From: an uncultured Gemmatimonadales bacterium
GTDB lineage: Bacteria; Gemmatimonadota; Gemmatimonadetes; Gemmatimonadales; GWC2-71-9
Length of the DNA: 64,000 nt
Reading direction: 5' to 3'
Assembly (NCBI GenBank): GCA_963796635.1
Contig: CAWCMH010000001.1
Location: forward strand, 2,788,209 to 2,852,208
Shown: one piece after another, positions 42,428 through 42,869 of the stretch
Position numbering within the stretch: the stretch's first letter is position 1
Layout of the letters: each line of letters begins with the position of its first letter
Translations under genes and position numbers: made by a program
The notes under the pieces: generated by a model
Database searches by the model: none
Seen by the model: only the letters and a program-made list of their open reading frames with translations
Told to the model about the DNA's origin: nothing

Positions 42428-42869
42428 GCCGCCGTCACTGAAGTGACCCTTCGCTGCGCTCAGGGCCGGCGGCTCGGCACGGCGAAGCCCTGCCGGGCTG
42501 GGAACTGTCCAGCGTCGTGTACGACGCTTCGCGCCGCCGAGCCGCGGCTTCAGCCGCGCCGGCCCGTCGCGATATCTCTTGCGTGCCCCGTCGCCGGCGT
42601 CACTGAAGTGACGGCTCGGCACCACGAAGTCGCTGGCGCGACTCATCAGGGCCAGCGTCATTGATGACGCTTCGCAGCCGCCGAGCCGCGGCTTCAGCCG
42701 CGCCGGCCCTTCGCGATATTTCTTGCGTGCCCCGTCGCCGGCGTCACTGAAGTGACGGCTCGGCACCACGAAGTCGCTGGCGCGACTCATCAGGGCCAGC
42801 GTCATTCATGACGCTTCGCAGGGCCGAGCCGCGGCTTCAGCCGCGCCGGCCCTTCGCGATATTTCTGGC
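42428..42869. repeat. Tandem array (3 units of about 165/144/133 bp) of the family A multi-hairpin module
   Basis: Units start at 42428, 42593 and 42737. Same module and orientation as 10285-10897. It fills the divergent ftcD / LigD-pol intergenic region. Confidence 0.85.

Follow-up and report, generated by a model that had tools for sequence, protein, structure and literature searches.

In Escherichia coli, bacterial interspersed mosaic elements (BIMEs) are tandem clusters of inverted REP pairs and linkers that lie between genes, and the number of repeats varies from locus to locus. The Correia elements (CREE) of Neisseria are small inverted-repeat elements beside genes that have a promoter inside the element consensus. 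In Actinobacteria and Deinococcus, the promoters of leaderless mRNAs carry the hexamer TANNNT directly 5′ of the start codon. The REP and REPIN sequences of Pseudomonas and enterobacteria are mobilised by RAYT transposases (PMC3116915, PMC3337134). Here we describe an array of hairpin-rich repeats in DNA from an uncultured Gemmatimonadales bacterium (GCA_963796635.1, contig CAWCMH010000001.1, positions 2,788,209 to 2,852,208; this whole stretch of 64,000 nucleotides is called the window). The array, locus 2, occupies positions 42428-42877, which is the spacer between two divergent genes, ftcD on the minus strand and, on the plus strand, an open reading frame (ORF) of 520 amino acids with a LigD primase-polymerase domain; a second array of the same family, locus 1, lies elsewhere in the window. 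The reading that we prefer, with a probability of about 0.6, is that a non-coding palindromic DNA repeat specific to Gemmatimonadales forms a small tandem array at locus 2 and that the promoter of the LigD-polymerase gene was co-duplicated with it.

The array and the 5′ end of the LigD-polymerase gene

Locus 2 consists of three units of one repeat, all in one orientation, which is also the orientation of locus 1. Tandem Repeats Finder (TRF) reports a repeat with a period of 144, 2.6 copies and 94% matches at 42509-42877, and units 2 and 3 are 98% identical. Including both loci there are 9 units in the 64 kb, and a BLAST search of the window found no further copies of the family. A tail of 27-29 nt stands 3′ of every locus-2 unit. 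The last tail contains the hexamer GATATT, 6 nt 5′ of the ATG at 42870 and with no Shine-Dalgarno sequence, as well as the start codon itself and 5 further coding nucleotides, so that the repeat register stops 8 nt inside the coding sequence. The two tails further 5′ read GATATC or GATATT, then TCTTGC, then GTG CCC CGT (copying M-P-R), and run into a stop in hairpin 1 of the next unit. A coding reading of the 144-nt (48-codon) period was rejected, as the pattern of G+C at third codon positions (GC3) is non-coding and the period at locus 1 is 214. The first-pass annotation of this DNA had described the three units and their orientation, the tails, the position of GATATT and a paired double change in hairpin 3 of unit 1 correctly. 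It had also proposed that the last repeat donates the promoter of the gene, and here our comparison points in the reverse direction.

The start codon at 42870 is secure, because no other in-frame start follows the TGA at 42753 and because the conserved block R3-F5-L6-L7 of the protein starts two codons past it. The N-terminal ∼200 residues are shared with a very large family of Gemmatimonadales proteins that stand alone and in which this block starts M-x-R-x-F-L-L-S-P-A, and by this comparison the M-x-R-x-F-L-L N-terminus is ancestral. The closest ortholog that could be had is P0001 on L076, which shows the same fusion of domains; its metagenome-assembled genome (MAG) also carries the closest relative of the repeat (L028). 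The 92-nt spacer 5′ of P0001 contains no unit of the family. Nevertheless, L076 reads TACAAT-TCTCGC-GTG-TCC-CGC-GTC-TTC-CTG in register with GATATT-TCTGGC-ATG-CCC-CGC-CTC-TTC-CTC of the window. As L076 is free of the repeat and yet has the box, the spacer and the start codon, these three parts are ancestral to the gene. On this alignment the predicted promoter is the gene's own, and it was duplicated along with the repeat unit rather than supplied by it. The more distant orthologs on L073 and L075 have no conserved upstream box; at about 64-65% amino-acid identity, this comparison is uninformative. The deposited start of P0001 (ATG 1639, ‘MNYNSRVSR...’; L076 1639-1659) differs from the GTG at 1657, which has TACAAT 6 nt upstream and aligns with the start in the window, so that the deposited start is probably placed 18 nt too far upstream.

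The tail is absent at locus 1 and at the right flanks of the 22 complete elements that we collected from other genomes (below), and the right flanks of elements elsewhere are not conserved. The 17-nt linker of locus 1 is unrelated to the locus-2 tail (p = 0.31 for similarity) and weakly resembles the 3′ flank of locus 1 itself. By these comparisons, the array grew as a 144-bp segment, made of one unit and the adjacent 27-29 bp, was duplicated in tandem, and the 27-29 bp are the gene's own predicted core promoter, its start codon and the next 5 nt. The two upstream tails are therefore decayed copies of the 5′ end of the gene.

Leaderless initiation of the gene, which the first-pass annotation had also proposed, is supported in part. 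In the window, TANNNT stands 5-7 nt before ATG or GTG in 13 genes, against a background of about 0.5 per distance. The cases include ftcD (TATCTT+5) and leuS (TATTAT+5); further examples are the starts at 47098 and 49994 on the plus strand and at 32328 and 60068 in minus-strand counting. Leaderless mRNAs thus appear to be common in this organism, although the signal is far weaker in the other Gemmatimonadetes loci. In a published survey, the class Gemmatimonadetes is given as 22 in what is apparently the column for percent Shine-Dalgarno (PMC10783764). GATATT fits TANNNT in its 6-nt spacing, its A2 and its T6, but has G instead of T at position 1. What makes the box plausible is mainly the alignment with the ortholog, and a leaderless start is likewise plausible for the 520-aa gene, which would probably be expressed from this native, slightly degenerate −10 box. 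A scan of 42000-43700 for sigma-70 and terminator consensus sequences gave no sites and no T-run terminator.

The repeat family and its end hairpins

The left 28 nt of a unit (GCCGGC-GTCAC-TGAA-GTGAC-GGCTCGGC) and its right 28 nt (GCCGAGCC-GCGGC-TTCA-GCCGC-GCCGGC) are inverted copies of each other at 22/28 positions. A unit is thus one end module that is present as an inverted pair and flanks two inner hairpins. In the end module a palindromic hexamer, which is GCCGGC here and GAGCTC in most relatives, is followed by a hairpin with a stem of 5 bp and a TNAA loop and then by GGCTCGGC, which does not vary.

We scanned one genome per species with the hairpin-1 motif and added a metagenome scan, which contributed five contigs. 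Chance matches occurred in many phyla, while real elements were found only in MAGs of Gemmatimonadetes/Gemmatimonadales. At least 9 such MAGs carry copies of the motif, and in one of them (JANYLJ) there are at least 14 exact matches on 11 contigs. In all 27 complete elements (22 from other genomes) hairpin 1 lies to the left and hairpin 4 to the right, the two modules are inverted and GGCTCGGC is paired to GCCGAGCC. In general terms an element reads GAGCTC-GTCAC-TAAA-GTGAC-GGCTCGGC-[inner arm]-centre-[inner arm, inverted]-GCCGAGCC-GCGGC-TTTA-GCCGC-GAGCTC and measures 105-235 nt in all. The elements are intergenic and lie between ORFs with high GC3, often with a few to 60 nt between them and the closest end of an ORF, and are flanked by ordinary housekeeping genes. 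They lie both ways relative to the genes; between tandem genes, 6 elements are co-oriented with the upstream gene and 2 are not (crude GC3-based gene calls), a difference that is not significant. No target-site duplication or direct repeat was found at the flanks of any of the 27. Outside the window, the 60-100-nt centres of the copies are mutually unrelated, with the exception of one pair.

Two copies on contigs 67 and 75 of MAG JANYLJ (L007 6482-6649 and L033 6873-7053) have centres of ∼80-93 nt that are reverse complements of each other (score 54, versus 11 for the direct comparison). Their unlike ends hold the same order despite the inverted centre, which resembles a flip/flop inversion between inverted arms. 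Because the shared centre stands in opposite orientations, the arms behave as inverted repeats in vivo. The left end is also the site of slippage-type micro-repeats, namely GCTCGTC x4.6 at locus 1 (10258-10289) and GAGCTCGTCACTAAA x4 in L013 (431-490) and x2 in L056 (∼940-973), and the foot of hairpin 1 appears prone to local tandem duplication. We found nothing relevant in the literature on REP-, REPIN- or RAYT-type sequences in Gemmatimonadetes/Gemmatimonadota. The units belong to a previously undescribed, REP/REPIN-like family of hairpin-rich intergenic repeats of Gemmatimonadales.

Conservation of the structure is clearer across this family than within the window. Among 85 end modules selected by the loop and GGCTCGGC alone, 79 are fully Watson-Crick paired, with six different stem sequences (GTCAC, GCGGC, GTGGC, GCGAC, GGGGC and GTCGC), and 4 have a single mismatch; several versions of the stem occur side by side in one MAG. 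For a formal count we used 35 end modules (25 distinct) that were picked without a pairing requirement and were not fixed by the search pattern, giving 150 stem cells. In these, 96% of cells are paired, compared to 80.2 ± 1.7% in shuffles (0/500 shuffles as high). Two-sided change is seen at 4/6 pairs, with 28 double-change cells, 6 unpaired cells and no one-sided change of the G-U type. The loop-closing position is T..A in 73/82 modules and C..G in 7/82 and is never half-changed, which lends partial support to the sixth pair given by the first-pass annotation. The outer hexamers covary as a set (GAGCTC/GAGCTC versus GCCGGC/GCCGGC). Since the stem sequence varies freely between copies and genomes while the arms stay Watson-Crick complementary, it is the structure of the end hairpins (1 and 4) that is conserved.

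The first-pass annotation had based the same conclusion on two hairpins of the window, which it called direct evidence of selection. The conclusion stands for the end hairpins of the family, while the two examples carry less than was claimed for them. Hairpin 3 reads AGCGTCAT-TC-ATGACGCT in the other units, and the A-T to G-C double change of unit 1 is a single event; in the three short units of locus 1, two pairs of this hairpin are broken. Counted in the window alone, one preserving event against two broken pairs comes close to what the first-pass annotation itself had named as a refutation; the family count given above (28 against 6) is for the stems of the end modules. Hairpin 4 differs between the loci as had been described (GCGGC-CTTG-GCCGC at locus 1, GCGGC-TTCA-GCCGC at locus 2), but the changed ‘pair’ is the loop-closing position and as a local pair would leave a loop of 2 nt. 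Moreover, the hairpin-1 loop changes complementarily with it (CAAG/CTTG at locus 1, TGAA/TTCA at locus 2), so the ‘compensatory change’ of hairpin 4 is half of a four-way concerted change. ViennaRNA prefers an extended fold in which the two loops pair with each other, and within the window the helix formed in this way shows perfect covariation, being CCAAGG/CCTTGG at locus 1 and CTGAAG/CTTCAG at locus 2, with a two-sided change at three pairs. As a feature of the family, loop-loop pairing was rejected, as 0 of about 7 variant loops elsewhere are compensated.

The earlier proposal left open whether the structure acts as RNA or as single-stranded DNA. The units fold with z-scores of −6.5 to −9.6 relative to shuffled controls on either strand (unit 2, −71.8 kcal/mol, z = −6.5), and both strands fold equally well. 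Mismatches in the long arms are G.T in 22 cases and A.C in 24, and the two ends of each element carry the same module on opposite strands. The centre that L007 and L033 share in inverse orientation likewise speaks for DNA. The lack of G-U intermediates and the similar numbers of G.T and A.C argue against a single functional RNA strand. From this modest number of independent changes we infer a constraint on DNA hairpins or cruciforms, as in REP/REPIN systems. It would act at the DNA level because it is strand-symmetrical and lacks wobble intermediates, for example if a structure-specific enzyme or protein recognises extruded single strands. Copies would have spread to intergenic sites without target-site duplications.

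Alternative readings

The competing explanation that deserves most attention, although we consider it a minority possibility, is that the paired changes arose mechanically in DNA palindromes without any selection, through template switching within a strand (quasipalindrome correction) or through gene conversion, be it between arms or between copies. Templated mutation in quasipalindromes is an established mechanism, and it would account for the clustering of changes (4 of about 9 differences between units 1 and 2 sit in the 6-nt apex of hairpin 3), for the joint change of the hairpin-1 and hairpin-4 loops within this genome and for the lack of single-step G.T intermediates. It is hard to see, without purifying selection, how it would keep six stems perfectly paired over many genomes in which the flanking centres have fully diverged, and none of about 7 loop variants outside the window was corrected toward complementarity. 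That the units are instead a transcribed structured RNA selected on one strand, be it a 5′ leader of the non-homologous end joining (NHEJ) operon, a 3′-UTR stabiliser or terminator, or a small RNA, is unlikely. The very stable predicted folds, the compensatory stem changes, the many copies a few to 60 nt past stop codons, the tendency to co-orientation and tail boxes that could fire into the next unit would all suit such a role. The equal folding of the strands, the 0 G-U among 150 stem cells and the balance of G.T and A.C do not, and neither do the opposite strands taken by the module within an element and the two orientations relative to genes; there is no T-run terminator and no Rfam family, and the orientation trend falls short of significance.

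A third possibility reverses the roles of repeat and gene: the tail would belong to a locus-2 subfamily of the repeat and, by landing or expanding beside the gene, would have provided a leaderless LigD-polymerase gene with its −10 box and even with its start codon. The presence of the tail on every locus-2 unit, a GATATT at textbook spacing where leaderless promoters are common and the precedent of the Correia elements had made this attractive. It is strongly disfavoured and in our view very improbable, as the tail is missing from locus 1 and all other family members, carries ATG/GTG + CCC + CG in frame with the conserved Arg3 of the ancestral N-terminus, and has its counterpart in the repeat-free TACAAT-TCTCGC-GTG of L076. 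Least probable of all is that the units are classical miniature inverted-repeat transposable elements (MITEs), that is, deletion derivatives of an insertion sequence with a DDE transposase, moved by cut-and-paste via terminal inverted repeats with the ends GAGCTCGTCAC...GGCTCGGC. Terminal inverted repeats of ∼28 nt (22/28 identical), a size of 105-235 nt and intergenic positions are what such elements would show. Yet there is no target-site duplication in 27 complete elements, no copy adjoins a transposase and the centres are unrelated among copies, and hairpin ends whose stems vary but stay paired fit recognition of structure rather than sequence-specific binding of terminal inverted repeats. 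In a more far-reaching picture, one could speak of phylum-specific DNA-hairpin elements with asymmetric hairpin ends, an invariant GGCTCGGC, centres unique to each copy and flip/flop inversion of the centre, which would be kept or moved by a structure-specific single-strand DNA enzyme. The centres would then be filler from repeated breakage and end-joining at the hairpin tip, and local amplification would multiply the core promoter into decoy promoters or leaderless mini-ORFs that tune the NHEJ operon; we regard this joint picture as quite doubtful.

Several points weigh against the co-duplicated DNA repeat that we prefer. The absence of the tail elsewhere in the source genome is seen in these 64 kb only, and the window shows no enrichment, at 5-7 nt, of hexamers that lack T1 (13 observed versus about 12.5 expected). 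Neither near the copies nor among the ORFs flanked by them was there a transposase, RAYT or other mobilising enzyme, and no insertion sequence sharing the ends of the element was seen in about 500 kb of loci; neither search was genome-wide. REPINs and MITEs do not usually have unrelated centres. For hairpins 2 and 3 there is next to nothing to compare with (L028 alone, and for hairpin 2 only), and the absence of G-U rests on only about 8 independent stem changes.

With this reading, a REP/REPIN-like family of palindromic repeats is documented here for Gemmatimonadota, a phylum for which we found no published description of one, and its six interchangeable stem sequences make an unusually clean case for conserved end hairpins. 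Locus 2 also serves as a worked example of a repeat array that amplifies the core promoter and start codon of a gene, which annotators and promoter hunters may easily misread backwards, and the window adds to the evidence for frequent leaderless initiation in this lineage. The finding opens no long-standing question.

Neighbouring features and comparison with described systems

The coordinates of locus 2, its neighbours and locus 1 are given in Table 1.

Table 1. Features of locus 2, the adjoining genes and locus 1 (positions in the window)
Feature	Position	Strand	Details
ftcD, start codon	42405..42407	-	from the sequence; product has Pfam FTCD_N/FTCD/FTCD_C
ftcD, −10-like TATCTT	42413-42418	-	5 nt 5′ of the ftcD start; among the TANNNT+5 cases of the window
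Unit 1	42428..42563	+	old and diverged; 23-nt insertion after hairpin 1; hairpin 2 differs
Unit 1, hairpin 1	42434-42447	+	from the sequence
Unit 1, alternative hairpin 2			AGCCC-TGCC-GGGCT, in place of the usual one
Unit 1, hairpin 3 variant	42511-42528	+	AGCGTCGT-GT-ACGACGCT
Unit 1, hairpin 4	42544-42557	+	from the sequence
Tail copy 1	42564..42592	+	CCGTCGCGATATCTCTTGCGTGCCCCGTC; GATATC + TCTTGC + GTG CCC CGT; copy of the gene 5′ end
Unit 2	42593..42707	+	complete element: GCCGGC, hairpin 1, GGCTCGGC, hairpin 2, hairpin 3, GCCGAGCC, hairpin 4, GCCGGC
Tail copy 2	42708..42736	+	CCTTCGCGATATTTCTTGCGTGCCCCGTC
Unit 3	42737..42850	+	complete element; outer hexamers 42737-42742 and 42845-42850
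Unit 3, hairpin 1	42743-42756		
Unit 3, GGCTCGGC	42757-42764		
Unit 3, hairpin 2	42772-42787		
Unit 3, hairpin 3	42798-42815		
Unit 3, GCCGAGCC	42823-42830		
Unit 3, hairpin 4	42831-42844		
Native gene 5′ region, source of the tails	42851..42877	+	CCTTCGCGATATTTCTGGCATGCCCCG; TRF end 42877; alignment with repeat-free ortholog L076
−10-like GATATT within it	42858-42863		then spacer TCTGGC, ATG 42870 and 5 more coding nt
520-aa gene	42870..44432	+	N-terminal domain (about 1-200) and LigD primase-polymerase domain (residues 250-504)
Locus 1, same family	10254..10901	+	GAGCTC-type left end and GCTCGTC slippage repeats at the start
Locus 1, body			three copies of [short unit (83 nt) + full unit (115 nt) + 17-nt linker]; period 214
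Locus 1, position			flanked by the stop codon of ORF 10920-11744 (-) and by a leuS promoter of leaderless type (TATTAT, 10238-10243, -)

A ligase gene lies directly 3′ of the 520-aa gene, with a GTGA start/stop overlap at 44429. What had been called the LigD-polymerase gene is a fusion, and its conserved N-terminal ∼200-aa domain (window 42870-43500) has no match in Pfam or NCBIfam. Elsewhere this domain is a stand-alone protein of ∼200 aa with at least 8000 matches, and on L073 a stand-alone gene of this type is located immediately 5′ of a gene for an ATP-dependent DNA ligase. Its AlphaFold2 (AF2) model is alpha/beta and confident (pLDDT 90.5), and a Foldseek search with it gave no PDB match at E < 0.1. 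FLLSPA, SGLYFRGK and GRGDMSRGG are invariant motifs of the domain, which may be an uncharacterised NHEJ accessory domain.

The window also contains other repeats. Heptamer arrays of CTAACGC/CTAATGC and the inverse GCGTTAG lie at 7046-7094 and 7721-7752 in inverted orientation, about 630 bp apart, and similar arrays are present at three other places, including 1681-1769 and 33443-33471, one of them with a TATACT box after it. Another family of dispersed repeats, which has the core GTCATCCCGAGCGAAGCGAGGGATCGCT, occurs at 20070-20128, 53249-53324 and 58119-58241 (families D8 and D9). At 54275-55237 there are seven copies with a ∼150-nt period and the conserved core CCCCAGCAGTA.GC.GC (family D3); this is probably a repeat-containing protein-coding gene.

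How, then, does locus 2 compare with the systems described so far? Its resemblance to the leaderless promoters of Actinobacteria and Deinococcus would lie in a hexamer that ends 5-7 nt before ATG or GTG with no Shine-Dalgarno sequence, as in 13 genes of the window; the difference is the G at position 1 of GATATT, where the ortholog has the canonical TACAAT. With Correia elements the units share their small size, their inverted repeats and their position beside genes, but here the −10 box does not fall within the consensus of the family, and the ortholog without the repeat has it too. Three other assignments were rejected. Integron attC sites were dismissed as the ends are GAGCTC/GCCGGC and not R″/R′ core sites (RYYYAAC / GTTRRRY) and the arrays lack cassettes, and membership among DDE-type MITEs fails on the target-site duplications (0/27). 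For the structured RNAs of Rfam, no covariance model matched at the gathering score in the window and 6 related loci, and a permissive threshold gave weak sub-threshold matches only.

The family is REP/REPIN-like in architecture and behaviour and forms BIME-like arrays, but membership cannot be claimed. Like REP and REPIN sequences, the elements are short imperfect extragenic palindromes in which an inverted pair around a spacer makes a long hairpin, they lack target-site duplications, they may reach tens of copies per genome and their stem complementarity is kept. They differ in that the module consensus has no GTAG-type tetranucleotide, the conserved motif of single-stranded type being GGCTCGGC, in that the two ends have unlike hairpins (GTCAC versus GCGGC) and in that spacers are unique to each copy in most genomes. 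No RAYT gene was found among the ORFs flanked by copies, and the phylum is Gemmatimonadota. As in BIMEs, inverted pairs are joined by linkers into tandem intergenic clusters; whereas BIME linkers are conserved between loci, the linkers here appear to be locus-specific copies of the flank, 17 nt long at locus 1 and 29 nt at locus 2.

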